Part shown: in pieces, positions 1,820 to 37,278 of the stretch
Layout of the letters: every line of letters begins with the position of its first letter
How positions within the stretch are numbered: position 1 is the stretch's first letter
Source of the DNA: Candidatus Omnitrophota bacterium
Lineage (GTDB): Bacteria > Omnitrophota > Gorgyraeia > Gorgyraeales > Gorgyraeaceae
Direction: 5' to 3'
Length of the DNA: 64,000 nt
NCBI GenBank assembly: GCA_003485765.1
Contig: DNHS01000035.1
Coordinates: forward strand, 127,745 to 191,744
The notes under the pieces: model-generated
What the model saw: the letters and a program-made list of their open reading frames with translations, nothing else
Told to the model about the DNA's origin: nothing
Databases searched by the model: none
Program-made: the position numbers and the translations under genes

Positions 1820-2930
1820 GTTTCCTCCTATAGGAGGAGGCGCGGCAAATGCTGCATTTTATATAGCAAGTTACCTTAGAAATAAACAGCATGAGGTAAC
1901 AGTGATTACCTCAAGATTTAAACGGGTCAACCAGGCTGAATATGATTTCAACATAATTTATCTCCCTGTTTTGAGAAAGCATATTGACAGGACATCGCCT
2001 TTGGAATTGATTTCTTTCGCTCTGTCAGGTATTTTTTATAGTTTATTTAATATCAGAAAGTCTAGATACGATATATGCCTTGCTATGCACGGTATACCTA
2101 GCGGATGGGTTGCTTTTGTTATACGCAAGATTTTTGGAATTTCTTATATTGTTTCTCTTCGCGGAGGTGACGTGCCAGGCTTTTTGCCTCAGGAATATGA
2201 TAGGCTTCATAAAAAAGTAAAAATTCTAACCAAACTATATTGGAAAAATGCAAAATCTATTATTGCCAATAGCGAGGGTTTAAAAGAGCTGGCAGATATT
2301 ACTGCGAATACGTTAGATAAAAAGGTAAAGATTGTATCAAATGGTGTTGATTGTCAGGCCTTTAAACCGGATTATTCGTTAAGAGACAATCAGTCCATTA
2401 GGATTATTTACGCTGGAAGAATTACTTTACAAAAGGGATTGGAAGGCTTTATTAAAGCTGTAAAACAAGCTAAGGACAAGATAAAAAATAATTTTAATAT
2501 AAAAATTATAGGCAATGGCTATTTAAAGGCCTATCTTGAAAAGATATCATTTGAATTGTGCGGCAAGGGTATTATAACATTCAGCGATTGGATGGATAAG
2601 AAGAGCCTGATTATGGAATACAAAAAAGCGCATATATTTATTCTTCCGTCATTTTATGAGGGTATGTCAAACTCACTTCTTGAAGCCATGGCATGCGGTT
2701 GTATGGTGATAGCAAGCGATATACCTGGCAATAGAGAGCTTGTTAAAAGATATGAAAATGGTGTTCTTTTTAATCCAAGCGATTCATTGAATTTAGAAGA
2801 GGTATTGATGAATGTTTTAAATAGCGGGCCGGGCACAATAGAAGATATGGGTAAAAAAAGCAGGATAATTGCTGAGAGATTTGATTGGGACAGAGTAACA
2901 GATTTGTATCTTGAAGAGTTCTATGCGTAA
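1794..2930 (+). CDS. family 4 (GT-B) glycosyltransferase
   Basis: MKILIICHEFPPIGGG N-terminus and the C-terminal EGMSNSLLEAMACGCMVIASD E-x7-E motif. Confidence 0.8.
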   Translation: MKILIICHEFPPIGGGAANAAFYIASYLRNKQHEVTVITSRFKRVNQAEYDFNIIYLPVLRKHIDRTSPLELISFALSGIFYSLFNIRKSRYDICLAMHGIPSGWVAFVIRKIFGISYIVSLRGGDVPGFLPQEYDRLHKKVKILTKLYWKNAKSIIANSEGLKELADITANTLDKKVKIVSNGVDCQAFKPDYSLRDNQSIRIIYAGRITLQKGLEGFIKAVKQAKDKIKNNFNIKIIGNGYLKAYLEKISFELCGKGIITFSDWMDKKSLIMEYKKAHIFILPSFYEGMSNSLLEAMACGCMVIASDIPGNRELVKRYENGVLFNPSDSLNLEEVLMNVLNSGPGTIEDMGKKSRIIAERFDWDRVTDLYLEEFYA

Positions 2931-4257
2931 AAAATATCTGATAATTTTTGTTGTGTCAATTTTAATAGCCTTTATTTTCATATATCTTGACAGAGATGCA
3001 AGAAAAATAAAGGCAGATGCAATTATCTATTATACCATAGCAGAAAATATTGTAAGCGGTCATAGCTTTTCTGATAAAATAAACCCTCCATATTCGCCTA
3101 CAATGTCCCGCGAGCCTGTATATCCTTTATTCTTGAGCGTTCTATTTTATTTATTTAACAAAAATATCCTGGCAGTTCAATTTGCTCAAGCCTTGATATA
3201 TGCCTTAACTTGCTTAGTTATGTTGAAAGTTGTTTCTATGTTGTTGAGTGAGGCCAAATATCAGTTTATTATCTCTATGATCATAGCGCTTTTTCCTGTA
3301 ATCCCAAGTTATGTGCCATATATGTTTACCGAAGTTTTGTTTACATTTCTCTTGGCATTATGTGTTTTTTCTATAATAAAAGGTCTAAAACAGGATGGTT
3401 TGAAGTGGTATTTTATTTCAGGTATGCTAATCGGTATTGCTACTTTATGCAGGGCTATATTGATATTATTGCCTGTATTTTTATTGGTTTTAATGTGTGT
3501 GCATTTCTATAAAAAATATAAAAGAATTATCACCCCTGAATTATTCAAGGCGTCTGTTTTACTATTATTTGGATTTGCGCTAGTAGTAATGCCGTGGATG
3601 GCAAGAAATTATTTATTGTTTAATAAGCCATCTATTGCATTAAGAGGTTTTAGCAGTATGTACACAAGGGCCGTAAAAGTGAATTTAAGCAAGGATGAGC
3701 TTAAGATGTATGGAATCTATTGTTTTTCTGAATATTTAGCTGGCAAAGTATATCCACAGCATTACCTTGTTTCTAACGCAGGAGGGTATTTTTATAAACC
3801 AGCGCTTCAAAAAATCAAAGAATATTCAGACAAAGGTATTTCTCAAGAAAAGGCAGATGACATGTTTAAAAAAGAGGTACTGGAGCTGGTCCGAAACCAT
3901 CCAATAAAATTTACTGCTATGGGTTTTTTTGAAATTGTAAAACTCAATTCTTTCTCTCAAGTTTTATTTGTAAATCAGAAGAGCATGGAAGATGCTATTC
4001 TGAACACATATATATTGTTTGCAATAAGAGGTTTTTTAAAATTGCTCGGTTTTTTTATTGTTATCGTAGCTTTTGCAGGAATGATTTCTGTGCATAAACT
4101 CAGGCACGAATGGATGGTTCTATTTTGTGTGATTATGTATTTTAATACGATACATTTTTTTCTTGACTCTGTTGGCAGATACGTTGTTCCGATAATCCCT
4201 TATTATATATTATTTTGTATAGTACAGTTGAGAGGATTAGGACGCAAGGCATTATGA
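2911..4257 (+). CDS. ArnT/PMT-like (GT39/GT83 family) integral membrane glycosyltransferase
   Basis: More than 10 predicted TM helices. N-terminal DAIIYYTIAENIVSGHSFS loop motif is typical of the dolichyl-phosphate-mannose/ArnT family. Paralogous to 23731-24963. Confidence 0.55.
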   Translation: MKSSMRKKYLIIFVVSILIAFIFIYLDRDARKIKADAIIYYTIAENIVSGHSFSDKINPPYSPTMSREPVYPLFLSVLFYLFNKNILAVQFAQALIYALTCLVMLKVVSMLLSEAKYQFIISMIIALFPVIPSYVPYMFTEVLFTFLLALCVFSIIKGLKQDGLKWYFISGMLIGIATLCRAILILLPVFLLVLMCVHFYKKYKRIITPELFKASVLLLFGFALVVMPWMARNYLLFNKPSIALRGFSSMYTRAVKVNLSKDELKMYGIYCFSEYLAGKVYPQHYLVSNAGGYFYKPALQKIKEYSDKGISQEKADDMFKKEVLELVRNHPIKFTAMGFFEIVKLNSFSQVLFVNQKSMEDAILNTYILFAIRGFLKLLGFFIVIVAFAGMISVHKLRHEWMVLFCVIMYFNTIHFFLDSVGRYVVPIIPYYILFCIVQLRGLGRKAL

Positions 4258-5615
4258 TGTTGAAAGAAAAAATTATAAACACTAATAAGCCGGTTATATT
4301 GATGATAGGGGCTGTAATAGCTCTTGCAGTAAATTTTCTACCCTCAGAAGGTATGGTGTTTCCTTTTCTTATTTTTTGTATAGGGCTTTTTATAGGAATG
4401 TTCTTTATTAATTTAATGCCGGAACAAGATAATAAATTTTTAATATCGCTGTTTCTTCTGGCATTTTTGTCAAGGATTTTTGCGTCTCTATTTTTCTTCA
4501 ATGCAGTTTTTTTATATAATGGCAATGGAATGCTTGGAGATGCATGGCCTTTTAGCCAAAGCGGTTATGATGTTCTTCAGATGTGGCTGGCCGGTATCAG
4601 AGACATAAAGACTATTACAGATAATATGATGAAAATAACAGCCAGCGGAAATCTGGGTAGTTATGATTTCTGGAATGCAGTGGTTTATTTTTTTACAGGC
4701 AAAAGCCCTATGTCTGTAATATTTATCAATTGTCTGGCAGGTTCTCTGGCCGTTATATTCATATATTACATTACAAAACAGATGTGCAGTATAAAGGCCG
4801 CTAAAATAGCAGCTATTTTGACCGCTTTTTGGCCTTCAATATTTATGTGGTCAATACAGAATTTAAAGGAATCCTCAAGTATTTTTTTAATAGTATTTTT
4901 AATGTGGGCCATGCTAAATTTAAAGACAAGATTCAGATTTCATTTTATATTTTTGGTGTTTATTTTAAGTTTAGCCCTTAAGGAAATGAGGCTTATCTCA
5001 TTTTTTGTATTTTATATATTGGTAGTTCCATTCGCATTATTTTTATCGATATGCAGGTCTAAAAGGCTGGAATTTATATTTTTAGGCATCTTGATTATAT
5101 TTATTGGGGTTTCATTATTTGAGGTGGTCAAGCTTCAAATAGTAAAGCTTATACCTTTTTTTCCAACCAGAGGCAATATTGAGTTTTTGAAATGGGCATA
5201 TGAGATGAGAACTAACAGGGCTACAGGCGGAACAGCGTTTTTGACTGGTTTAAATTTATCTAACCCATTAAACCTTGTATTTTTTGTGCCAACTGCACTA
5301 TTAATTGCCTGGTTAGCGCCTTTTCCATGGCAGGTGGGGAGCATGTCACAGATAAGCGCTATTCCTGAAATGCTGGTATATTATATGCTCATACCATCTA
5401 TATTTTCAGGTTATAGATTTATAATGAAGCATAGAGTTAGTGAAGGCGGACTATTGATAATAGCCTATATTTTCATAATGATGATTGTCCTGGCATTCAT
5501 AGAAGGCAATATAGGTACTTTATTTAGGCATAGAGCAATGGTTTTGCCTTTTTTATTTGTGTTAATAGGTATAGGGCTGGAGAAAATAACATTTAAAATT
5601 ACAGCGCATGACTAA
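4254..5615 (+). CDS. polytopic membrane protein (possible Wzy-like polymerase or GT-C enzyme)
   Basis: ATG at 4254 overlaps the upstream stop (ATGA). Hydrophobic throughout with no soluble-domain motifs. Function inferred from context only. Confidence 0.35.
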   Translation: MMLKEKIINTNKPVILMIGAVIALAVNFLPSEGMVFPFLIFCIGLFIGMFFINLMPEQDNKFLISLFLLAFLSRIFASLFFFNAVFLYNGNGMLGDAWPFSQSGYDVLQMWLAGIRDIKTITDNMMKITASGNLGSYDFWNAVVYFFTGKSPMSVIFINCLAGSLAVIFIYYITKQMCSIKAAKIAAILTAFWPSIFMWSIQNLKESSSIFLIVFLMWAMLNLKTRFRFHFIFLVFILSLALKEMRLISFFVFYILVVPFALFLSICRSKRLEFIFLGILIIFIGVSLFEVVKLQIVKLIPFFPTRGNIEFLKWAYEMRTNRATGGTAFLTGLNLSNPLNLVFFVPTALLIAWLAPFPWQVGSMSQISAIPEMLVYYMLIPSIFSGYRFIMKHRVSEGGLLIIAYIFIMMIVLAFIEGNIGTLFRHRAMVLPFLFVLIGIGLEKITFKITAHD

Positions 5616-18703: not shown

Positions 18704-20122
18704 ATGTTGTTTAATTCTTTACAATTCGCTGTGTTTTTCATAATAGTTTATAGTCTCTATTTAGTACTGAACCACAAGTGGCAGAATCGGATGCTTCTTA
18801 CAGCTAGCTGTGTTTTTTATGGCGCATGGGATTGGAGATTTTTACTTTTAATGTTTGTTTCAATAACTACTGATTATTTTTGTGCTCTCAAGATACAAGA
18901 ATCAGTTGAAGAAAAAACAAGAAAAAGATTTTTATTTTTAAGCATATTTATTAATTTGGCAATATTAGGGTTCTTTAAATATTTCAATTTTTTTGCTGTT
19001 AGCATGGATAATCTTTTTAGCCACTTTGGTTTTTCTATCCAGCCACATCTCCTGCATATAATACTTCCGGTTGGCATCTCTTTTTATACATTCCAGGCTT
19101 TGAGCTATACTATAGATGTTTATAGAAAAGAACTGGAGCCTACCAGGAATTTCAGGGATTATGCCCTTTTTGTTACATATTTCCCGCAGCTTGTAGCAGG
19201 GCCTATTATGAGGGCAAGAGATCTCCTTCCTCAAGTCCTTTCAGCCAGAAAGTTATCTTTGAAACAATTTTATGAAGGATGTTATCTTATATTTTGGGGC
19301 CTGTTTCAAAAGATCTTTATCGCAGATAACCTGGCAAAAATAGTAGATTCTGTATTTAATTCCTCAGGCCCTTATAACGCGGCTAAAGTTCTTATAGCGC
19401 TATACGCCTTTGCGTTTCAGATATATTGTGATTTTGCAGGATACTCTAATATAGCAAGAGGCATGGGTAAATGCATGGGCTTTGACATCATGATTAATTT
19501 TAATCTGCCATATTTTGCCGTTAATCCAAGTGATTTCTGGAGAAGGTGGCACATAAGTTTGTCAACGTGGCTTAGAGACTATCTTTATATACCATTAGGC
19601 GGTAACAAAAAAGGCGGGTTCCTTACTTATAGAAATCTGGCAATAACCATGCTTTTGGGAGGGTTATGGCATGGCGCTGCTTGGACTTTTGTTATTTGGG
19701 GAGCTTATCATGGCATGCTTCTTATAATACACAGATTGCTTAAACCTGTGCTTGCAAAGATACCCAGCCCTAAAAATGCTACAATAGGGAAAGCGTGGTT
19801 TTTCTTGCGCGTTGTTTTCTTTTTCCAATTAACATGCGTCGGGTGGCTGATTTTCAGGGCCAAATCCATAGGACAGATCCTGAATATGCTCGGTAGTTTT
19901 GTTTCAAACTTTAATGTCGGTTTAGACATGGGTTTCTTCAGCTTAATTCGCTTAATCTGGCTGCTAATATTAGTTCAGATTGCGCAGTTTATAAAGAATG
20001 ATCAAATGGTCGTCTATAAATCAAATATTCTGCTTAAAGCGGTATTTTATATTATCTTTTTTTATTCAATAGTTATGTATGGAGCAAGTGGTGGAAAAGA
20101 ATTCATTTATTTCCAATTCTAA
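18704..20122 (+). CDS. MBOAT-family membrane O-acyltransferase (AlgI/DltB-like)
   Basis: Polytopic, with the conserved …WRRWHISLSTWLRDYLYIPLGG… His-containing MBOAT motif. Confidence 0.85.
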   Translation: MLFNSLQFAVFFIIVYSLYLVLNHKWQNRMLLTASCVFYGAWDWRFLLLMFVSITTDYFCALKIQESVEEKTRKRFLFLSIFINLAILGFFKYFNFFAVSMDNLFSHFGFSIQPHLLHIILPVGISFYTFQALSYTIDVYRKELEPTRNFRDYALFVTYFPQLVAGPIMRARDLLPQVLSARKLSLKQFYEGCYLIFWGLFQKIFIADNLAKIVDSVFNSSGPYNAAKVLIALYAFAFQIYCDFAGYSNIARGMGKCMGFDIMINFNLPYFAVNPSDFWRRWHISLSTWLRDYLYIPLGGNKKGGFLTYRNLAITMLLGGLWHGAAWTFVIWGAYHGMLLIIHRLLKPVLAKIPSPKNATIGKAWFFLRVVFFFQLTCVGWLIFRAKSIGQILNMLGSFVSNFNVGLDMGFFSLIRLIWLLILVQIAQFIKNDQMVVYKSNILLKAVFYIIFFYSIVMYGASGGKEFIYFQF

Positions 20123-26454: not shown

Positions 26455-26562
26455 AAGGGTGGGGGCAAATAGCCGCCGCCCTTGCAATATTACCATTCTT
26501 ATGTTATACTCATTATAGTGAGTAATAGTTCAATAAAATGAGTATTGGGGAGGGAAGGAGTT

Positions 26563-27129
26563 ATGCTTTCTAGTTATGTTATCTCTACTAATTCACAAAG
26601 CGCATTAAGCTTTCTTCTCGCGCATCCTGACAAATCACATTACGAAAGAGAAATTGCCAGAGGCGCTAAGATTAGTTATGGCTCAGCTAATAATATATTA
26701 AATCGGTTATACAAAGAAAACCTGGTCAAGAGAAAAATTGAAGGCAGGATGTGTTACTATTCTATTGATATGGCTAATCCATATATCAAAGAATTTAAGA
26801 TTCTAAATAATCTCCTTCTTATTGAATCTCTAATAGAACTTCTCAAGCCATATGCCCGCAAGATAATTCTTTACGGAAGCTGGGCTCAAGGAACCGATAT
26901 CGAAAATAGCGATATAGACTTGTTTATTATTACCTCAGATGAAGATAAAGTCAGATCTATTGTTGACAAATATTCTTATACTAACAAAGCAGCCAATAGA
27001 AAAATACAGGCTATTATCAATACCCCTGCTGATCTCCTGAACACAGATGAGAAAGAGGCTGTTTTTATGGAAGAAGTAAAACAAGGAAAAATCTTATGGG
27101 AGAGAGAAATTAATGAACATAACCTTTAA
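26563..27129 (+). CDS. winged-HTH + minimal nucleotidyltransferase (MNT) protein
   Basis: ATG at 26563 follows a GGAGGGAAGGAG RBS; the track start at 26545 is TTG. GSWAQGTDIENSDIDLFII is the pol-beta NTase GS…DxD motif. The N-terminal about 70 aa are wHTH-like. Confidence 0.7.
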   Translation: MLSSYVISTNSQSALSFLLAHPDKSHYEREIARGAKISYGSANNILNRLYKENLVKRKIEGRMCYYSIDMANPYIKEFKILNNLLLIESLIELLKPYARKIILYGSWAQGTDIENSDIDLFIITSDEDKVRSIVDKYSYTNKAANRKIQAIINTPADLLNTDEKEAVFMEEVKQGKILWEREINEHNL

Positions 27130-27544
27130 AGATTGCATAGCAAGTAAGAAAATATTCCGCTTTCCTCCGGCAAAGCACCTTGTAGATCTCGAAATCAAAG
27201 ATTCTGAGGATGATCTGCAATCAGCCGAGGAAGAATTTTCTAAAGCAGGATATAAATGGGCTACGATTAAAGGCTACTATTCAATGTTCCATGCAGCGCG
27301 AGCTCTCCTGTACTCTCGGGGATACAGAGAAAGAGGCCATTATTGTCTTTACCTGGCAATAAAAGAATTCTTCGTTAAAGAAGAGAAGCTAAATCTTCAA
27401 TTGGCAGAAGATTTTAACAATTCTATGATTCTGCGGGAAGAAGCGGATTACAAAAGAAAATTTTCTCAGAAAGGCGCTTCTGGAATAATTGAAAGCGCAA
27501 AAAAATTCCTTAAGGCGGCAAAAGAACTACTAAATCCCCTTTGA
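27113..27544 (+). CDS. HEPN-domain protein (partner of the upstream MNT)
   Basis: All-helical 143 aa with an R-x(3-6)-H-like segment (RERGHY) and REEADYKRK. Start overlaps the MNT stop by 17 nt. Confidence 0.6.
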   Translation: MNITFKDCIASKKIFRFPPAKHLVDLEIKDSEDDLQSAEEEFSKAGYKWATIKGYYSMFHAARALLYSRGYRERGHYCLYLAIKEFFVKEEKLNLQLAEDFNNSMILREEADYKRKFSQKGASGIIESAKKFLKAAKELLNPL

Positions 27545-28293: not shown

Positions 28294-28489
28294 GTCTTAA
28301 TAGAGGATTTCATGAGAGAGGCCGTAGAGTTTTTGAAGAACTTAGTTTTTGGCAAGGAATATCTTAAGGCGACTATAAAAGAATACTAGCATCGGGGACG
28401 TCTTACTGCGCTGTAACATTTTACCATATAATAAGTTACGAGCCTTATGGTTCTAAAATATAAGGCATTTCTATGTGATGTATTCGAAT

Positions 28490-28574
28490 CGTGACGCGCT
28501 GCGTCACGAATTAAGCTGGACGCACTATAGGAAAAATTACTCATCAAGATATAGCCCAGGTTTAAACCTGGGCT
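28490..28574. repeat. two GC-rich perfect hairpins/palindromes in the Phd-RelE upstream region
   Basis: cgtgacgcGCTgcgtcacg (28490-28508) and the perfect 22-mer AGCCCAGGTTTAAACCTGGGCT (28553-28574). Confidence 0.5.
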
Positions 28575-28595
28575 GCTGCGAGCTGAACTGTTACC

Positions 28596-28624
28596 TTGAC
28601 AGATATCCAAAAATAGGATATACT
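28596..28624 (+). promoter_or_regulatory. sigma70-like promoter of the Phd/RelE pair with internal operator
   Basis: TTGACA(28596-601)-17 bp-TATACT(28619-624). The spacer contains inverted repeat ATATCC-N7-GGATAT. Confidence 0.45.
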
Positions 28625-28666
28625 TTTAATGTAGACACAAAGGTAACTACAAAGGAGGTGAGTGTG

Positions 28667-28957
28667 ATGAGCATTGCTGCTGATTTATTAAAAGCTAATC
28701 ATGTTGGCATCAGGGATATTAAAGAACATCTATCTACACGGCTGCTTAAAGATATTTTGGTAATAACTGATAGGGGCACGCCTGTAAGTGTAAATCTGCC
28801 TTATTCTGATGTATTAGAATTGATAGATATTATTGATGAGGCGGCGGATTTGGAAACTATGGCTACAGTTAGCGAAGGAAGATTGGCAATAAGGGAAGGC
28901 GCAAAAGGTATACTGGTTGCCGATCTTTTTAAAAGAATAAGGACGCAGCGTAAATGA
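28667..28957 (+). CDS. Phd/YefM-family antitoxin
   Basis: ATG 28667 preceded by AAGGAGG; the longer track ORF from 28475 has no RBS and runs through the palindromes. Sequence …GIRDIKEHLSTRLLKDILVITDRGTPVSV… fits Phd/YefM. Stop overlaps the toxin start (ATGA). Confidence 0.6.
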   Translation: MSIAADLLKANHVGIRDIKEHLSTRLLKDILVITDRGTPVSVNLPYSDVLELIDIIDEAADLETMATVSEGRLAIREGAKGILVADLFKRIRTQRK

Positions 28958-29262
28958 AATACCAGGTTAGGTTCCCCGGTCATTCTATTGAGAAAAAATT
29001 TGAGAAATTTCTTTTAAAGATTCATCCGGTAAGCCTGCAAGAAGAAATTATGCAAGACCTGAGTAAGCTTGCCGATAACCCCCGGCCTTATGGTGAAAAG
29101 GCTTTTAAGAAACTCAAGCTGCCTATTCAATTTTATCAGTATGTTGCGCAATACAGAATAAGAATAGGCGACTATAGAATGCTTTATGATGTAGATGATG
29201 AGAAAAAGATTGTATGGATTTTAGCATTGAGAAGGCGTTCGGAAAAAACATACAGAACATAA
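28954..29262 (+). CDS. RelE/ParE-family toxin
   Basis: C-terminus YRIRIGDYRMLYDVDDEKKIVWILALRRR is the RelE/ParE/YoeB signature. Confidence 0.7.
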   Translation: MKYQVRFPGHSIEKKFEKFLLKIHPVSLQEEIMQDLSKLADNPRPYGEKAFKKLKLPIQFYQYVAQYRIRIGDYRMLYDVDDEKKIVWILALRRRSEKTYRT

Positions 29263-29323: not shown

Positions 29324-31204
29324 ATGTGCGGGATATGCGGGAAGATTAGTATAAATGGTAATGTGACAGAAGAACTCATCAGGAAGATGTGTGGGGTGCT
29401 TACGCATAGGGGGCCGAATGACGAAGGGGTTTATGTAAAAGGAGGTATGGGGCTGGGGCATAGGAGGCTCGCTATTATTGATTTATCGCAGGCTGGGCAT
29501 CAGCCGATGAGTAATGAAGATGGTTCTATCTGGATAGTTCTGAATGGAGAGATTTATAATTTTATTGAGTTAAGAGAGGCGCTTGAAAAAAAAGGCCACA
29601 GGTTTAAATCTCATGCAGATACTGAAGTAGTATTACATTTATATGAGGATAAAGGCGTAGAATGCCTTAAGGATTTAAGAGGGCCTTTCGCGTTCGCGAT
29701 ATGGGATAGCAGGAAAGAACTTCTTTTTATTGCCAGAGATAGGATTGGCAAAAAACCATTATATTACCATTATAGAAATCAGACATTGATCTTTGCTTCC
29801 GAGATTAAGGCTATCCTGCAGGATCCTGATGTATCGAGAGAGGTCAACAGACCTGCAATAACAGATTATCTAAGTTATGGATATACGCCTACGCCAGAAA
29901 CTATGTTTAAGAATATTGTGAAGCTCCCGCCTGCTCATTTTATGGTCTATGAAAAAGGCAATATAAGATTAGAAAAATACTGGGAACTTGATTTTTCAAA
30001 AAAGATAAAAATGTCCGAGAAAGATTATTGCCATAGAACCATGGAACTTCTTGAAGAATGTACTAAGATACGCCTAATAAGCGATGTACCGCTAGGAGCT
30101 TTCTTAAGTGGGGGCATAGATTCGAGCGCTGTAGTGTATATGATGAGCAAACTAAGTTCAAAGCCTGTAAAGACATTTTCCATAGGTTTCGATGATAAAG
30201 AGTATAGCGAATTAAAATACGCTAAAGTTATTGCAGATAGATTTAAAACAGAACATCATGAGTATATTGTTAAGCCAGACGCTATAGAACTTTTACCAAA
30301 ACTCGTATGGCATTACAATGAACCTTACGCTGACTCTTCAGCTCTGCCCAGTTATTATGTGGCGAAGATGACCAGACAAGAAGTGACTGTCGCTTTAAAC
30401 GGAGATGGAGGGGATGAGGATTTTGGAGGATATGAAAGGTTTATGGCAGCAAGATTCGCTGAATCAATCAGTAAATCGCCTGTGCCTTTCAAGGATAAAA
30501 TTATAAAGCTTATTGTAAGTAGTATTCCAGAATCCATGGGATTTAAGGACTCTAGGTTCAGGCTTAGGAGGTTTTTAATCGAGTTATCAAAGCCATGCAG
30601 GGAAAGGCATTACAATTGGATATCGATATTCAGCGAGCATGAAAAGGAAAACATGTTTACAGCAGGATTTGCCGGAGAACTTGCCGGAAAGAGTTCATTT
30701 AATTATTTAGACAGAGCGTTTAATGAATGCGGCTCAAAAGATATTGTAGATTTAGTGATGTCAGCGGATATAAAGACTAATCTATTGGATGACCTGCTTG
30801 TGAAAATGGATATAGCAACAATGGCGAATTCGCTGGAAGGCAGGTCGCCGTTTTTAGATCATAAGATGATGGAGTTCTGTGCCGCTATGCCGAGCAATAT
30901 GAAAATAAAAGGCACAAAATTAAAATATATATTAAAGAAAGCGTTATCCAAGGCATTGCCTAAGGAAATACTTTCCCGAGGCAAGATGGGATTCGGCGTG
31001 CCACTGGACGCCTGGTTTCGTAAAGAATTAAAAGACTATTCTTATGGCATTTTAATGAGCGATAACTGCGTAAATAGAGGTTATTTTAAAAAAGACGTTA
31101 TAAAGAAAATCCTTGATGAACACACCTCCGGCAAAGCCAATAACGGCGCCAGGATCTGGAGCCTATTATTCCTGGAATTATGGCATAAGGAATTTATAGA
31201 TTAA
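29324..31204 (+). CDS. asnB: asparagine synthase (glutamine-hydrolysing) family amidotransferase
   Basis: MCGICG N-terminal Cys nucleophile, RGPNDEG, SGGIDSS PP-loop, 626 aa. Confidence 0.9.
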   Translation: MCGICGKISINGNVTEELIRKMCGVLTHRGPNDEGVYVKGGMGLGHRRLAIIDLSQAGHQPMSNEDGSIWIVLNGEIYNFIELREALEKKGHRFKSHADTEVVLHLYEDKGVECLKDLRGPFAFAIWDSRKELLFIARDRIGKKPLYYHYRNQTLIFASEIKAILQDPDVSREVNRPAITDYLSYGYTPTPETMFKNIVKLPPAHFMVYEKGNIRLEKYWELDFSKKIKMSEKDYCHRTMELLEECTKIRLISDVPLGAFLSGGIDSSAVVYMMSKLSSKPVKTFSIGFDDKEYSELKYAKVIADRFKTEHHEYIVKPDAIELLPKLVWHYNEPYADSSALPSYYVAKMTRQEVTVALNGDGGDEDFGGYERFMAARFAESISKSPVPFKDKIIKLIVSSIPESMGFKDSRFRLRRFLIELSKPCRERHYNWISIFSEHEKENMFTAGFAGELAGKSSFNYLDRAFNECGSKDIVDLVMSADIKTNLLDDLLVKMDIATMANSLEGRSPFLDHKMMEFCAAMPSNMKIKGTKLKYILKKALSKALPKEILSRGKMGFGVPLDAWFRKELKDYSYGILMSDNCVNRGYFKKDVIKKILDEHTSGKANNGARIWSLLFLELWHKEFID

Positions 31205-31235
31205 TACCCTTCCCTTTGATAGCCCACTTTCATGG

Positions 31236-31304
31236 CATGTCTAATGGACACATTCTGCCAGCGCCTATTGACTTTTAAGTTAGAAGCGGGTAGATTTATA
31301 TATA
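31236..31304 (+). repeat. direct repeat R3 copy B with promoter (TTGACT 31268-73 / TAGATT 31291-96)
   Basis: Near-identical to 26378-26454. Confidence 0.6.
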
Positions 31305-31328
31305 GTAATTAAAAATCTGGAGGGATAA

Positions 31329-31899
31329 ATGACAAAAGAGGCAGCTGTTACTAAAATTGCTATTTTTCGGAAGAAAGAGATCAGGAAAACCATTCATAAG
31401 AATGAATGGTGGTTTGTTATTGAAGACGTTATCTCAGCTTTGATTAATTCCAGTGATCCTAAGCAGTATATACAGAGAATGAAACAAAGGGATCCAGAGT
31501 TGGCCAAAGGGTGGGTACAAATTGTACATACCCTTGAAATTCGCACAGAAGGTGGAAGGCAGAAGATGAACTGTGCAAATACAGAAGGTATTTTTCGCAT
31601 TATCCAGTCTGTTCCTGACCCCGTCCGCGTATAAAAAGTTTAAAGGATTAAAGCGGCAAAATCTGCGGGATCATATGAATGACTTGGAGCTAATCTTCTC
31701 AATGCTTGGAGAGGCATCCACTAAAGAAATCACCATAAATAAAAATGCTCAGGGATTTATTGAGACTAAACAAGCGGCCCAGGAGGGCGGCGCTGTCGCA
31801 GGCAATGCTAGAAAAGAATTGGAAAGAAAGAGCGGTAAAAAAGTATTAACGCGTGAAAATTATCTAAAGGCAGCTCAAAGCAAGAAACTCTTGAATTAA
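31329..31899 (+). pseudogene. Bro-N domain / DinD-like gene split by a +1 frameshift
   Basis: ORF 31329-31634 carries a Bro-N-like N-domain (…NEWWFVIEDV…TEGIFRIIQSVP). The +1 frame ORF continuing to 31899 carries a DinD-like C-terminus (…QGFIETKQAAQEGGAVAGNARKELERKSGKKVLTRENYL). The frames switch near the C-run at about 31617. Confidence 0.5.
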
Positions 31900-31917
31900 T
31901 GGAGTAATATTATTTTA

Positions 31918-31966
31918 GGAAAGAAAAATTTTTGAAAGAAAACGCTTTTGAGATGTGTCTTATATA
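31918..31966 (+). repeat. repeat R2 copy 1 (ends in GAGATGTGTCTTATATA box)
   Basis: Matches 34083-34140 apart from a 9-nt indel. Confidence 0.5.
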
Positions 31967-32022
31967 GTAGCGAATCAAGGACTCTAATCCGCTGATTTTG
32001 TAAAAAATCCTTACTTTCGTCC

Positions 32023-32051
32023 TTGACGATTTCCTTACTTTATGGTATATT
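32023..32051 (+). promoter_or_regulatory. sigma70-like promoter of the AbrB-type antitoxin cassette
   Basis: TTGACG-17 bp-TATATT, then RBS GGGAGGTGAG and ATG 32074. Confidence 0.45.
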
Positions 32052-32073
32052 TGATAACGGGAGGTGAGAAAAT

Positions 32074-32331
32074 ATGACAGTTACCATGACCGCAAAGAAT
32101 CAAATAACCATACCTAAAAAGATCACAGAAGCCTTGGGTTTAGAAAAGGGGTCTATGTTCAAGGTAGAGGTTTCTAAGAATGGGATAGAGTTTATTCCTC
32201 TGGAGACAAAAGAGAGGGAGTTTACCCATGAGGAATATACAAAATTAGAAACCCTGGCAGTACAAGAAAAGGGAAAAGAGAAGCGCGTGACAAAAAAGCT
32301 TATCGATAATTTAAAAAAAGGGAAAATTTAA
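32074..32331 (+). CDS. AbrB/MazE/SpoVT-type (swapped-hairpin) antitoxin
   Basis: N-terminus TMTAKNQITIPKKITEALGLEKGS is the SpoVT/AbrB looped-hinge motif. Confidence 0.7.
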   Translation: MTVTMTAKNQITIPKKITEALGLEKGSMFKVEVSKNGIEFIPLETKEREFTHEEYTKLETLAVQEKGKEKRVTKKLIDNLKKGKI

Positions 32332-32334
32332 TCA

Positions 32335-32472
32335 ATGCCTTTACGAAGGCCTTATTATGAAGCCGGGATAGAAGGAAGTATTCGTGTTGTGATAAGACAA
32401 GAGGGGCAAATGTGTATTGCAGTATTAGCAGGGAATCACGACCAAATAAGACAATTTCTGGCCACTGGGTAG
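32335..32472 (+). pseudogene. truncated RelE/ParE-like toxin remnant (45 aa)
   Basis: Begins 4 nt after the antitoxin stop. Peptide …SIRVVIRQEGQMCIAVLAGNHDQI resembles only the C-terminal beta-sheet of RelE/ParE; the N-terminal half is absent. Confidence 0.3.
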
Positions 32473-32558
32473 AGAACCTTCCCCTATATAAACCAAACAT
32501 AGAGGCGCGTTATGGAAAGGACGAAGTCGCCAAGGCAAGAGAGCTTAGCTTTATGATA

Positions 32559-32620
32559 GTCTCCTCCATGCGTTCGGATAATCCTTTAAGGAATATTGGA
32601 TATGTGGTTGGGATTTTAAG
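32559..32620 (+). repeat. repeat R1 copy 1
   Basis: About 90% identical to 34022-34082 (gtctcctccatgcg…ggataatcctttaag…gggattttaag). Confidence 0.55.
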
Positions 32621-32718
32621 ATATGCCCGATAGACATATTTCGTCAGTACCTATTGACAAAATAAAAATATAGATTATACTCTATATAGAGATAGGTTAT
32701 AATCTATATGCAAGCATA

Positions 32719-33441
32719 GTGGGGATTTCTATGGATTTGAAGCTAAGAGAGGCACAAAAACTTGTTCTGAAGATATTTTCGCAAGAGGCAGAGGATTTCG
32801 CGCTTGCCGGCGGCACAGCACTTGAATTATATTACCTGCGTCACAGATTTTCTTCGGATCTGGATTTTTTTTCAAGAAAATACCCCGTTTCAGAAATAGA
32901 TACTTTGGTAGAGGCCTTTGAAAAACATCTGGATCAGAAAATTCATCTGGAATCAGAATTTGTTTCCGTCAATAAGGCGTGCGTCCGGTTTTATGCTATA
33001 CCGGTCAAGGGTTCGGATAGGCCATTAAAGATTGATTTTGTTGAAGATGTTGTGTGTACTCGCCCGGTAATACGGAAAATTGACGGTGTCCGCGTGTATA
33101 GCGCGGAGGATTTATACCTGCATAAAATAGCCGCTATTTCTGGCACTCAAGTTATAACAGATGAGGTCGGCAGGCAAGTCAGCGAAGGCCGCAAAGAGGC
33201 GCGGGATGTATTTGACGTGTACATGCTTTCAAAAAAAATACAGCCATTGCACATATTCCTGCGCAGTCTTTCGCCCCGGTTCCAAAAGGGGATAGTCCAC
33301 TGGTATCGGACATTTTCCAGGCAGGAACTCAAGCTCGCGCTAATGGAGCTGGATATTTACGATACTGAATTCAATGCCAGGGAATTGGTTATTTATCTGG
33401 AAAACGAGGTCAAGCAATTAGCCAAGGAGGCAATAGGATAA
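32719..33441 (+). CDS. AbiEii/AbiGii-family nucleotidyltransferase (type IV TA toxin-like, DUF1814)
   Basis: …FALAGGTALELYYLRHRFSSDLDFFS… is the AbiEii GGTAL…R.SxDLDF NTase motif. An alternative ATG is at 32731. Confidence 0.7.
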   Translation: MGISMDLKLREAQKLVLKIFSQEAEDFALAGGTALELYYLRHRFSSDLDFFSRKYPVSEIDTLVEAFEKHLDQKIHLESEFVSVNKACVRFYAIPVKGSDRPLKIDFVEDVVCTRPVIRKIDGVRVYSAEDLYLHKIAAISGTQVITDEVGRQVSEGRKEARDVFDVYMLSKKIQPLHIFLRSLSPRFQKGIVHWYRTFSRQELKLALMELDIYDTEFNARELVIYLENEVKQLAKEAIG

Positions 33442-33950
33442 TGATTATTTCAAAATATTTTTGGGACATAAGTGAAACTGCCCTGAAAGAAACAGCCAGG
33501 ATACTTAAAAATCCAAAACATCCTCAATTTCCGGTTAAAATGGTAATTTTTATGTCGCGCTGTGATAAGCCAAAGGAGCTATTTTCCTTGATTGCCAAGG
33601 ATGAGTTTATAGACGCATGGCCAAAGATCAGGGCTCAATGGATAAAACGCGCGCGGCAGTCAGATTTCAGGGATTGGTGGGAAACAATCTATGAACATCT
33701 CGTAGATGCGCATGGACGAGCGCGCAGAAAACCCACAAGCGCCACGCCGGTTTTTTTCCGAAAGTTTGGAGCGCTTATTAAAGAAGCGAGGATTCGGAAA
33801 GGGTTGAGCCAGAAACAATTGGCGCATCGCATAGGTATGAAACAGCCGGATGTTTCCAGGATAGAAGAAGGCAGGAAAAATATCACGCTATACACCGTCA
33901 TGCGTTTCTGCAATGTTTTAGGCATTAAGAAAATTACAGTAGGCCAGTAA
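33441..33950 (+). CDS. protein with unknown N-domain and C-terminal XRE-family HTH
   Basis: C-terminus LIKEARIRKGLSQKQLAHRIGMKQPDVSRIEEGRKNITLYTV is Cro/C1-type HTH. The ATG overlaps the AbiEii stop by 1 nt (TAATG). Confidence 0.6.
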   Translation: MIISKYFWDISETALKETARILKNPKHPQFPVKMVIFMSRCDKPKELFSLIAKDEFIDAWPKIRAQWIKRARQSDFRDWWETIYEHLVDAHGRARRKPTSATPVFFRKFGALIKEARIRKGLSQKQLAHRIGMKQPDVSRIEEGRKNITLYTVMRFCNVLGIKKITVGQ

Positions 33951-34021
33951 AACGTCAACTATTTTTTCGACCCTGTAATTATAATTGTCGCATAACAAAT
34001 GTAGCCAAAGCAGTCAAAAAA

Positions 34022-34140
34022 GTCTCCTCCATGCGGCCGGATAATCCTTTAAGAAACATTGGATATTTAGTGGGGATTTTAAGGAAAGAAAAATTTTAAA
34101 AATTTTTGAAAGAAAACGCTTTTGAGATGTGTCTTATATA
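34022..34140 (+). repeat. repeats R1 copy 2 + R2 copy 2 (ends in GAGATGTGTCTTATATA box)
   Basis: Direct duplicates of 32559-32620 and 31918-31966. Confidence 0.55.
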
Positions 34141-34168
34141 TGAAAGAGGGCTTGGGCATGGGGTGATA

Positions 34169-34197
34169 TTGACACATTTGTGTAAATGTGGTATATT
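34169..34197 (+). promoter_or_regulatory. sigma70-like promoter of RHH-MazF cassette with ACACAnnTGTGT operator
   Basis: TTGACA-17 bp-TATATT. The 20-mer ATTGACACATTTGTGTAAAT is also present at 29292-29311 immediately upstream of asnB. Confidence 0.45.
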
Positions 34198-34217
34198 TTG
34201 TTCAGGAGGTGAGTTAT

Positions 34218-34469
34218 ATGGTAAAAAAGAATATGGGAAGGGAAAGATTGAGCATTGATGTATTGCCGGAAGAACACAGGCAGATTAAGGCATATGCCGC
34301 GCTGTATGGTAAGACAATGAGAGAATATGTATTGGAATGCGTACAGAAAAAACTGCGAGAGGAAACTGAACAAAAGGAATTAGCTAATATGAGCGCATAT
34401 CCTGACAAGGATTCTATATTAAACAGCGTATGGGAAAATAAAAAGGATGCGGCATATGATAAAATGTAA
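34218..34469 (+). CDS. ribbon-helix-helix (CopG/ParD-like) antitoxin
   Basis: ATG 34218 after CAGGAGGTGAG. ERLSIDVLPEEHRQIKAYAALYGKTMREYVLECV is beta-strand then two helices. Confidence 0.6.
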   Translation: MVKKNMGRERLSIDVLPEEHRQIKAYAALYGKTMREYVLECVQKKLREETEQKELANMSAYPDKDSILNSVWENKKDAAYDKM

Positions 34470-34806
34470 ATACGGAGACATTGTATTAGTAAACTTTGGT
34501 TTTTCTGAAGGGATTGGGTTTGAGAAAAGGCCTGCGTTGGTTATAAGCAGTGAGGCATATCATGCGGAAAGGCAGGAGGTAGTTATCCTGGCTATTACCA
34601 GCAATGTAAATAGAATATTCTTGGGCGACACAAAGATTTCTCAATGGAAAGAAGCTGGATTGCTTTATCCTTCACTTGTTACAGCGATTATAAGGACAGT
34701 AAAATCAGATATGATTTTTAGGAAAATAGGGGAGATCGGGCCGGATGATTTAAAGAGGGTAGAGAGCAGTATAAAGAAAATTTTTGGAATAACTGGAGAA
34801 AAGTAA
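34447..34806 (+). CDS. MazF/PemK-family toxin (mRNA interferase)
   Basis: YGDIVLVNFGFSEGIGFEKRPALVISSEAYH is the PemK/MazF signature. Confidence 0.75.
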   Translation: MRHMIKCKYGDIVLVNFGFSEGIGFEKRPALVISSEAYHAERQEVVILAITSNVNRIFLGDTKISQWKEAGLLYPSLVTAIIRTVKSDMIFRKIGEIGPDDLKRVESSIKKIFGITGEK

Positions 34807-34820
34807 AGCTAGGAGGCAAA

Positions 34821-35558
34821 ATGGCGATGAGAAGTTATGGCTGGGTGCCGGATAGGCCGGATCAGAGGGATTATTTATATAAGGCGATAAGGCCTGTGGT
34901 GAGATTGCCTGAGAAAGTGGATTTGAGGGAATTTTGTTCTATTGTTGAGAATCAGGAGGCGCTTGGGAGCTGTACGGCGAATGCGCTAGCAGGAAATTTG
35001 GAATATTTGGACCATAAAATAGATGATGAATATGAGGATGTGTCGAGACTTTTTATTTATTACAATGAAAGAGTTTTGGAAGATACAGTTGATTATGATT
35101 CAGGAGCATCTCTAAGAGATGGCATTAAGACATTGAGGAAACAAGGCGCGTGCTGGGAAAAGACGTGGCCGTATTTAATAGAGAAATTTACCCGAAAGCC
35201 GCCTCTAAAATGCTACAAAGAAGCTAAAAAACACCAAATTGAATCCTACCACCGCATAGGCGCCCTATCTGAAATGCTTACCTGCCTCGCTGAAGGATAT
35301 CCGTTCGTCTTTGGTTTTACTGTTTATGAAAGTTTCCAGTCGCAGAAAGTGGCCAAAACAGGTGTGGCTAATATGCCCAGGAAGAAGGAAAAAGTCCTTG
35401 GCGGACATGCTGTCCTGGCAGTAGGCTATAACCAGAAGCAAAAGAGATTTATAGTGCGAAATTCCTGGGGAACTAAATGGGGCAAAGACGGATATTTCAC
35501 CATGCCGTACGAATACCTCGAAACCCTTTCAGCAGACTTCTGGACAATAAGAAAATAA
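34821..35558 (+). CDS. papain-like C1A cysteine peptidase, no signal peptide and no prodomain
   Basis: Full catalytic set: Gln (ENQ), Cys (GSCTANA), His (GGHAVLAVGY), Asn-Ser-Trp (NSWGTKWGKDGYF). AGGAGG RBS 5 nt upstream. Starts 15 nt after the MazF stop. Confidence 0.8.
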   Translation: MAMRSYGWVPDRPDQRDYLYKAIRPVVRLPEKVDLREFCSIVENQEALGSCTANALAGNLEYLDHKIDDEYEDVSRLFIYYNERVLEDTVDYDSGASLRDGIKTLRKQGACWEKTWPYLIEKFTRKPPLKCYKEAKKHQIESYHRIGALSEMLTCLAEGYPFVFGFTVYESFQSQKVAKTGVANMPRKKEKVLGGHAVLAVGYNQKQKRFIVRNSWGTKWGKDGYFTMPYEYLETLSADFWTIRK

Positions 35559-36867: not shown

Positions 36868-37278
36868 ATGACTATGAACAAGAAAGAAAAAGGAGAAATA
36901 GCGGGATTAAGAGGGGAACTGCGAAGCTCTGTGGGAGAATTAAGAGGAGAATTGCAGAGTTCTGTGGGAGAATTAAGAGGGGAACTGCGAAGCTCTGTGG
37001 GAGAATTAAGAGGAGAGTTGCGAAGCTCTGTGGAAGAACTAAGAATACACATGGGTGTCTTGGTAGAGGGTTTGCGTTCAGAAGTTAGGGTGGTAGCTGA
37101 ACAATATGGAAGCGTTGTAAAAAAGCTGGAAGAACATGACAGGAGATTTGATAAAATTGATCTAAGATTTGACAGAATCGACTTAGAGTTTATCGGTATG
37201 AAGACAGGTTTGTTTGATACTAGTCATAGAGTAGATGATCACGAAACAAGAATCAGAAAATTAGAATTAGCTAAATAA
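36868..37278 (+). CDS. small coiled-coil protein with four tandem 11-aa repeats (GELRSSVGELR)
   Basis: ORF preceded by GAAAGGAGG. Repetitive heptad-like N-half and a conserved-looking C-half (…RRFDKIDLRFDRIDLEF…). Confidence 0.4.
   Translation: MTMNKKEKGEIAGLRGELRSSVGELRGELQSSVGELRGELRSSVGELRGELRSSVEELRIHMGVLVEGLRSEVRVVAEQYGSVVKKLEEHDRRFDKIDLRFDRIDLEFIGMKTGLFDTSHRVDDHETRIRKLELAK
36914..37045 (+). repeat. 4 x 33-bp near-perfect tandem repeats inside the coding sequence
   Basis: Unit ggaactgcgaagctctgtgggagaattaagagg, repeated head-to-tail. Confidence 0.7.

Follow-up and report, generated by a model that had tools for sequence, protein, structure and literature searches.

Nucleotidyltransferase (NTase) toxins of the DUF1814 family, including AbiEii and MenT, are actively studied as tRNA-modifying growth arresters and phage-defence effectors, and a central question about them is by what means one catalytic core can be controlled by such dissimilar antitoxins. 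That question is raised by a two-gene locus in a 64,000-nt stretch of a Candidatus Omnitrophota genome (GenBank assembly GCA_003485765.1, contig DNHS01000035.1, positions 127,745 to 191,744 of the forward strand; hereafter the window), where an AbiEii-family NTase gene (32731–33441) is followed by a gene for a helix-turn-helix (HTH) protein (33441–33950), which we call the partner. The first-pass annotation of this DNA had proposed a reversed, partner-swapped relative of AbiE, and this view of the architecture holds, as the NTase comes first in every intact locus examined and is followed by an XRE-type protein that is not AbiEi. Taken together, our results indicate that the pair is probably an autonomous, horizontally mobile, autoregulated and toxin-first toxin–antitoxin (TA) cassette, with an antitoxin unrelated to AbiEi. 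The basis for this is in silico and consists of gene content, intact catalytic motifs, obligate linkage, co-divergence, toxin-biased decay and conserved operators.

The product of the first gene, a putative toxin of 236 aa encoded on the plus strand, matches PF08843 AbiEii with E = 4.4e-20 and 73.1 bits (cut-off 22.5 bits), and 27 PADLOC AbiEii models match it as well. We rejected the GTG at 32719 as its start in favor of the ATG at 32731 because the homologues, of 236–237 aa, begin with MD.K.R.AQ. The motif LAGGTALELYYLRHRFSSDLDFF is intact, and the key positions are G27-G28 and R39-x-S41-x-D43-x-D45 (32809–32865), K100/D102, K132 (33124–33126), and R158-D159-x-x-D162 (33202–33216). Among 94 NTases of the clade, G27, G28, R39, S41, D43, K100, K132, R154, D159, and D162 are fully invariant, D45 and D102 are each kept in 93 with a single substitution, and position 158 is R or K throughout (six R-to-K changes). 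The alignment of catalytic residues thus bears out the earlier description of the first gene as an AbiEii homologue with an intact motif. All four motifs described for these NTases (I, hG[GS]; II, R…DhD; III, K; IV, +DxxD; Dy et al. 2014, PMC3985639) are present, and the R at +7 of motif III is absent. The segment from R39 to D45 mirrors R63/T65/D67/D69 of AbiEii and the position of S78 in MenT3, and S41, conserved in 94/94 NTases, lies two residues before the first catalytic Asp, at the S/T phospho-acceptor position that is auto-phosphorylated upon antitoxin binding in AbiEii (T65) and MenT3 (S78) (PMC11375011; bioRxiv 10.64898/2026.01.19.700257).

Sequence searches of the PDB, with the single NTase or with a 26-sequence profile, did not reach the MenT or AbiEii structures and led only to JHP933 from the Helicobacter pylori plasticity zone (4O8S/4OK0), the closest solved relative, with E = 1e-5 for the single sequence and 4e-7 for the family profile. 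Therefore, the link to tRNA-modifying toxins rests on Pfam membership and shared motifs, and the motif correspondence on published motif definitions. JHP933 shares the architecture of an NTase domain with a helical C-terminal domain, and its motifs I–IV align with those of the NTase; however, the two proteins are only ~25% identical, and the structure paper describes neither a partner nor toxicity.

The partner is a protein of 169 aa with an HTH_3 domain at aa 113–163 (E = 6.6e-13). An AlphaFold2 model (mean pLDDT, the predicted local distance difference test score, of 84.5) divides it into a five-helix N-terminal domain at aa 1–92 (33441–33716, plus strand; hereafter the N-domain), a disordered basic linker at aa 93–103 (33717–33749), with pLDDT below 50 at residues 93–100 and poor conservation, and an HTH at aa 104–160. 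The C-terminal XRE (Cro/C1) HTH region, delimited as aa 104–163 from the HTH_3 and profile matches and the model, occupies 33750–33950 together with the tail and stop codon and is the candidate operator-binding part, and the N-domain is the candidate NTase-neutralizing part. Modeled by itself, the N-domain gave a pLDDT of 80. An uncharacterized N-terminal domain of about 110 aa ahead of a C-terminal HTH had been described previously; the HTH and the lack of a family match are as stated, but the domain is smaller, at ~92 aa plus a linker of ~10 aa.

Residues 1 to ~100 of the partner have no match in Pfam, NCBIfam, PADLOC or PHROGs, and Foldseek gave no significant match for the N-domain fold in the PDB (best E = 2.6) or BFVD. 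Within the family the domain is well defined, with K5, Y6, W8, L38-S39-R40-C41, P44, F48, F56, W60-P61, W67, W79-W80, and Y84 kept in at least 95% of members, and a signature of KYFWD…SRCDxP…WP…DWWETIYE. A word-indexed search recovered 344 full-length relatives of ~168 aa, and an exhaustive hidden Markov model search that used only the N-domain profile, against 1.84 billion representative proteins, yielded just 83 clusters at 50% identity. HTH_3 is also found in 50 of 60 scanned family representatives. No AbiEi domain was found with Pfam in the partner and 60 family members, nor with PADLOC or NCBIfam in the partner from the window. The best solved relatives of the HTH are C.BclI, C.AhdI, HipB, and HigA (profile matches to HipB and HigA at E ~1e-6 to 2e-5), and the score against TIGR03070 couple_hipB was 48.6 bits, under the cut-off of 71.65 bits. 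The partner is best read as a new, narrow antitoxin family, unrelated to AbiEi, that has been recruited to an old toxin.

The two genes lie on the same strand and share one base at the NTase stop and partner start (TAATG, 33439–33443), in agreement with the overlap reported at first pass, and many homologous loci have a 4-nt overlap of the ATGA type instead. The layout of NTase followed by partner is found in >130 independent loci, which argues against chance open reading frames (ORFs). Seeding with the partner, on a single genome for each GTDB species, gave 54 loci, ~50 of them informative; a full-length NTase gene lies directly upstream on the same strand in ~41 of these, and in a further three the 5' end is ambiguous or truncated by a contig end. 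Conversely, in an NTase-seeded set of metagenome loci with at least 150 nt of downstream sequence (n = 78), the partner directly follows the NTase in all 78, being full-length in 67 and cut by contig ends in 11. Even a partner of only ~29% identity is preceded by an AbiEii of 237 aa, with a 4-nt overlap. The divergence of the two proteins is correlated across 93 non-redundant pairs (r = 0.81; the maximum of 500 label shuffles was 0.19), with mean pairwise identities of 57% among the NTases and 54% among the partners. The HTH protein was never found without an AbiEii neighbor or a remnant of one, as the partner-swapped interpretation had anticipated, and the NTase and its partner form an obligate unit.

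The loss of genes from this unit is asymmetric. The NTase is internally deleted, with promoter and operators kept, in seven loci (L005, L013, L017, L018, L024, L049, and L057), six of them in the genome set and one found separately. In these the operators lie 67–448 nt from the partner ATG, as opposed to the usual ~770 nt, and four of the seven have a partner ORF that is intact over its readable length. By contrast, no intact NTase without a partner was seen (0/78, versus 6/49 with the NTase deleted; Fisher p = 0.003). An NTase that does harm when unopposed would be expected to leave this pattern, in which the toxin is lost and the antitoxin stays.

The upstream region is also conserved. A sigma-70-type promoter with 11 of 12 consensus matches (TTGACA at 32654–32659, a 16-nt spacer, and TATACT at 32676–32681, plus strand) precedes the NTase gene in the window, accompanied by two palindromes: O1, ATAGATTATACTCTAT (32670–32685), is centered on the -10 hexamer, and O2, ATAGGTTATAATCTAT (32692–32707), starts 22 bp after O1 and covers the start site and the 5' untranslated region. 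For the statistics we used 107 non-redundant loci and counted as a match at most 2 mismatches to ATAGnTTATAAnCTAT. Exactly two copies of this 16-bp palindrome occur within -100 to -10 in 94 of the 107 loci, and at least one copy, of consensus TATAGnTTATAAnCTATA, in 99; the density is 20.2 per kb in this interval, ~2000-fold that of the remaining sequence (0.0097 per kb, from 5 sites in 515 kb). In 81 of the 94 loci, palindrome 1 is preceded at a distance of 10–11 nt by a perfect TTGACA, and the TATAAT core of palindrome 1 can therefore be identified as the -10 hexamer. The start-to-start spacing of the two palindromes is 22–23 bp, or about two helical turns, in 91 of the 94, and the distance from the end of palindrome 2 to the ATG has a median of 16 nt. 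The motif is retained among loci whose proteins are as little as ~50% identical and fades at lower identities. The sole other match with at most 2 mismatches in the window, ATAGTTTATAGTCTCT at 18743–18758, is probably due to chance.

Since the XRE HTH is the only DNA-binding domain encoded by the operon, and its solved relatives bind paired palindromes as dimers, autorepression by the partner through these predicted operators is strongly implied. Translation of the two genes also appears to be graded: the ribosome-binding site of the NTase, GGGGA, is weaker than that of the partner, an AAGGAGG within the 3' end of the NTase gene (33424–33430, plus strand), 10 nt before the partner ATG. Toxin-first operons, such as higBA and mqsRA, need higher translation of the antitoxin, and the stronger site of the partner fits this need. 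No RNA element was found by an Rfam scan of 31–35 kb of the window.

The distribution of the module points to horizontal movement. By the titles of their records, the 54 genome loci comprise 28 from Omnitrophota, seven from planctomycetes, four from Nitrospirota, three each from Elusimicrobia and Delta-/Thermodesulfobacteriota, one each from Ratteibacteria, WOR-1, and Syntrophomonadaceae, and six that are unclassified. Some metagenome-assembled genomes (MAGs) carry two copies, e.g., L007/L010 and L008/L013, and the neighborhoods are unrelated: between genes for dxs and pyruvate:ferredoxin oxidoreductase, beside genes for an RHS toxin and a Y1 transposase, or within polysaccharide clusters. In the window, the module lies in a run of TA cassettes (a MazE-like gene with a 45-aa remnant ORF, ParD–PemK, ParE, and MNT–HEPN) inside a polysaccharide-biosynthesis cluster.

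Part of this run forms a TA-cassette hotspot, seen at 31200–34900 of the window and in L006, L007, L009, L010, L013, L063, and L064, in which MazE-like, NTase–HTH and ParD–PemK cassettes are divided by short shared repeats, namely D2, a 43-nt sequence with identical copies at 31924 and 34098, and D3, a 63-nt sequence with copies at 32558 and 34021. The left copy of D3 (32558–32620, plus strand) is 89% identical to the right copy, D3' (34021–34083, plus strand), and marks cassette borders in L009, L010, and L064. The sequence upstream of the pair had been described as repeat debris; it is one of the two 63-nt copies that bracket the module in a hotspot of shuffled cassettes. In the nearest relatives (87–99% nucleotide identity), individual cassettes around these repeats may be present or missing, stand in another order or carry internal deletions. 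This pattern suggests that cassette shuffling in the hotspot is repeat-mediated. A papain-family (Peptidase_C1) gene, at 34821–35558 in the window and also seen in L006–L009, is the conserved downstream neighbor of the module in the closest relatives, and in the window a ParD–PemK cassette is inserted between the two. In one Omnitrophota lineage, a 300-aa ORF without a Pfam match overlaps the partner stop by 4 nt (L003, 4504–5406; L004, 1895–2797) and could be a third gene specific to that lineage; we excluded it from the system because neither the window nor the other loci have it.

These surroundings bear on what the module might be for. It might primarily serve abortive infection or other anti-phage defense, with the partner acting as a phage sensor that is titrated or degraded on infection, which would free the NTase. 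The PADLOC AbiEii matches, the resemblance of the XRE domain to defense-associated HTH and controller proteins, and neighboring genes of TA or defense type, including HEPN–MNT and a PLD-like nuclease, would all fit such a role. Among DUF1814 systems, AbiE of Lactococcus lactis confers phage resistance, while AbiE of Streptococcus agalactiae gave no protection against 32 coliphages, and SanaTA and RlegTA are described in the same preprint as giving partial protection against T7 (bioRxiv 10.64898/2026.01.19.700257). However, the locus in the window is a polysaccharide-biosynthesis cluster and not a recognized defense island, and no copy of the module was found among 2.9 million viral contigs, in which our scan gave only an unrelated HTH match; PHROGs likewise gave no match to the NTase. 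We regard a primarily defensive role as unlikely, and it concerns the biological role rather than the mechanism, being compatible with a TA mechanism. The abortive-infection role suggested at first pass is thus unsupported, and the module behaves as a chromosomal, horizontally mobile cassette of the addiction type.

A different explanation does away with toxicity: the NTase could be a regulated, non-toxic enzyme that modifies, for example, a small molecule or an antibiotic, in the manner of some DUF1814/pol-beta NTases, and the partner only its dedicated transcriptional regulator, with the N-domain sensing a ligand. Such a function would be in line with the placement of ANT(2'')-Ia in the DUF1814 superfamily (bioRxiv 10.64898/2026.01.19.700257), with the high conservation of both genes, and with the modeled helical bundle of the N-domain, which could bind a ligand. 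On the other hand, the recurrent loss of the NTase with promoter and regulator kept is hard to explain for a regulator that serves this enzyme only; the module turns up within arrays of TA cassettes, at scattered genomic positions and in more than one copy per genome; and overlapping genes with a tightly autoregulated promoter, as predicted here, are typical of TA modules. We therefore consider a non-toxic enzyme very unlikely and favor the TA cassette.

Several points nevertheless weigh against the TA cassette. The only solved relative reached by PDB sequence searches, JHP933, is not an established toxin, a fact that also favors the non-toxic enzyme. Both proteins are unusually conserved for a TA pair, which could point to a cellular function beyond addiction, and the conservation of S41 fits a catalytic role as well as phospho-regulation. 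Every locus was taken from a MAG, a single-cell genome or a metagenome, and no cultured host is known. Finally, toxicity, neutralization, physical interaction, DNA binding, the tRNA target, substrate and nucleotide specificity, S41 phosphorylation, and a role in phage defense are all inferred.

As a TA cassette, the module would operate as follows. The single sigma-70 promoter would produce a bicistronic mRNA, from which the antitoxin would be translated by coupling to the upstream gene and from its stronger ribosome-binding site. By analogy with MenT1, MenT3, and AbiEii, the NTase would add nucleotides to the 3'-CCA ends of tRNA and so arrest translation. Dimers of the XRE HTH would bind the two 16-bp palindromes, one at the -10 box and one two helical turns downstream, and repress the operon, and the helical N-domain would bind and neutralize the NTase, either by occluding the active site or by inducing auto-phosphorylation at Ser41. 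The latter route is modeled on MenA1/MenT1, MenA3/MenT3, and AbiEi/AbiEii. In DUF1814 toxins, auto-phosphorylation of the conserved S/T is triggered by antitoxins that are structurally unrelated to one another (PMC11375011), and, as far as the account in bioRxiv 10.64898/2026.01.19.700257 goes, the absence of a COG5340 or COG4861 partner does not imply the absence of phosphorylation, which makes an S41-directed mechanism plausible here. It is possible, though somewhat unlikely, that the N-domain is an unrecognized antitoxin fold that neutralizes the DUF1814 NTase by triggering auto-phosphorylation of Ser41. The type IV mechanism suggested at first pass is not supported: AbiE itself is now reported as type VII, in which antitoxin binding induces auto-phosphorylation of the toxin (bioRxiv 10.64898/2026.01.19.700257), and nothing in the present locus argues for a non-interacting mechanism.

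It is worth comparing the module with the known systems that share its parts. With AbiE of L. lactis and S. agalactiae it has in common a PF08843/DUF1814 toxin of the COG2253 type, the four motifs, the S/T acceptor two residues before the first catalytic Asp, a bicistronic operon with inverted repeats over the promoter, and an antitoxin of two domains, presumably for DNA binding and neutralization here as well. In contrast to AbiEi, the partner has an XRE HTH rather than a winged HTH, in the opposite domain order, and its neutralizing domain is predicted to be all-helical instead of the alpha/beta C-terminal domain of AbiEi. The operators differ as well, being 23-3-23 inverted repeats in AbiE and two 16-bp palindromes 22–23 bp apart in the present module. 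Two defining features place the module outside AbiE, i.e., the lack of an AbiEi/COG5340 antitoxin and the opposite gene order, with the NTase leading in the window as in all intact loci examined. As noted at first pass, no AbiEi-like gene adjoins the pair; a tblastn search with the HTH_17+DUF6922 protein of L024 (see below) found nothing elsewhere in the window, the remainder of which was not scanned with AbiEi models.

The MenAT systems of Mycobacterium tuberculosis (MenT1/MenA1 and MenT3/MenA3) likewise have DUF1814 NTase toxins, and the tRNA 3'-CCA end would be the expected target in both cases. They differ in that the NTase of the module has no sequence-level PDB match to MenT structures, MenA1 is a single helix without a DNA-binding domain, MenA3 is AbiEi-like, and both systems are antitoxin-first. 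Reversed gene order is nonetheless viable for this toxin family: SanaTA, RlegTA, and SdenTA (Sberro 2013, as summarized in bioRxiv 10.64898/2026.01.19.700257) are described as experimentally validated DUF1814 TA systems with the toxin gene upstream of the antitoxin gene. Judging by their description in that summary, their antitoxins are AbiEi/COG5340-like, with beta-strands and the conserved AbiEi loop, whereas the partner is all-helical in the model, with a C-terminal XRE domain and no AbiEi-like fold match in the PDB. Pairs termed "abiEii-HTH_XRE" and "abiEii-higA" have been counted, though not characterized, in Pseudomonas aeruginosa (PMC9424990), and these share the combination of an AbiEii toxin with an XRE-type HTH partner in place of AbiEi; however, the N-domain is not evidenced there, the N-domain family comprises only the 83 clusters, and no Pseudomonas locus was recovered. 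With these precedents for toxin-first order and for AbiEii–XRE pairing, the features singled out by the first-pass annotation are less unprecedented than it implied.

On the regulatory side, the restriction–modification controller (C) proteins C.BclI and C.AhdI and the antitoxins HipB and HigA resemble the partner in having paired palindromic operators over the promoter, dimer binding (predicted for the partner), and autoregulation of a potentially lethal operon. They are single-domain proteins or have other partner-binding parts, and they control endonucleases, kinases or RNases rather than an NTase. The partner has the Cro/C1 HTH of the XRE/HigA/HipB class, without the cognate RelE/HigB or HipA toxin, the toxin beside it being a DUF1814 NTase.

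One further group of AbiEii modules has to be considered as a possible source of the partner. In L024, a gene for an HTH_17+DUF6922 protein (PF21956, E = 2e-10) is followed by the gene of a 27%-identical AbiEii. This DUF6922–AbiEii module (2134–3374), in canonical order, lies ~600 nt upstream of a decayed NTase–HTH copy (3961–4471), and the two kinds of module thus co-occur in one Omnitrophota locus. Both pair an AbiEii-family NTase with a small HTH protein, but their gene order and domain order are opposite and their HTH classes differ. The partner could then be a domain-permuted, highly diverged protein of the DUF6922 type rather than a new family, with AbiEii followed by [DUF6922-like + XRE] in place of the canonical [HTH_17 + DUF6922] followed by AbiEii. 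In support of such a relationship, the N-domain begins as DUF6922 does, with [YF]FWD…L in the same place, and in both a conserved His and hydrophobic/aromatic helices come next. We compared the two in two hhalign runs, one with a shallow profile and one with an 85-sequence profile (Neff 4.8). The alignments cover 12–43 columns over the FWD region, the 43 columns obtained with the diverse profile being in register, but the probability is only 1.9–2.4% (P = 0.02–0.026), which is non-significant in both runs, and we rejected homology of DUF6922 and the N-domain as a finding while keeping it as a lead. Moreover, PF21956 matched no member of the N-domain family in hmmscan, and nothing in the DUF6922 alignment corresponds to the invariant SRCDxP and DWWETIYE signatures. 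A permuted DUF6922 origin is therefore unlikely in our judgment, and a new family remains the better description of the partner. Our literature search found no mention of DUF6922, nor of AbiEii in Omnitrophota.

Other genes in the window were noted in passing. At 32074–32472, nothing but the 45-aa ORF, which has no family match, comes after a MazE/AbrB-type antitoxin gene (85 aa, PF04014), which is probably an orphan antitoxin whose toxin has decayed. The MNT–HEPN pair lies at 26545–27544, and its MNT protein (Polbeta/NTP_transf_2, aa 93–188) has an extra N-terminal winged HTH of the MarR/TrmB-like kind. At 28475–29262, the ParE-family toxin gene (102 aa) overlaps a gene for a 160-aa protein without a Pfam match, which may represent ParE with a non-canonical and unusually large antitoxin. 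Directly after asnB, a Bro-N ORF (101 aa) and a 108-aa ORF read in a different frame overlap each other (31329–31899), and the two look like a frameshifted remnant of a Bro-like gene of a phage or mobile element. Finally, a 136-aa protein encoded at 36868–37278 contains four tandem 33-nt repeats (11-aa units, ELRGELRSSVG) and has a weak apolipoprotein-like match below the Pfam cut-off.

Overall, the module overturns no concept, as partner swapping and reversed gene order are established themes among TA systems. What it adds is a well-defined antitoxin family without a detectable homologue, combined with an unusually clean and conserved design of promoter and dual operators. Search rules in the style of PADLOC or DefenseFinder that require AbiEi will miss such systems. 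The proposed division of labor, with neutralization by the N-domain and repression by the XRE domain, makes the module experimentally tractable. It is also among the few recognizable mobile cassettes common to uncultured Omnitrophota, Planctomycetota, Nitrospirota, and Elusimicrobiota. The N-domain may be an ancient relative that would help to explain the uncharacterized DUF6922 family found beside thousands of AbiEii genes. If the N-domain does trigger auto-phosphorylation of its toxin, it would add a third way, independent in structure, of achieving type VII antitoxin function, after the MenA1 helix and the AbiEi/MenA3 loop.

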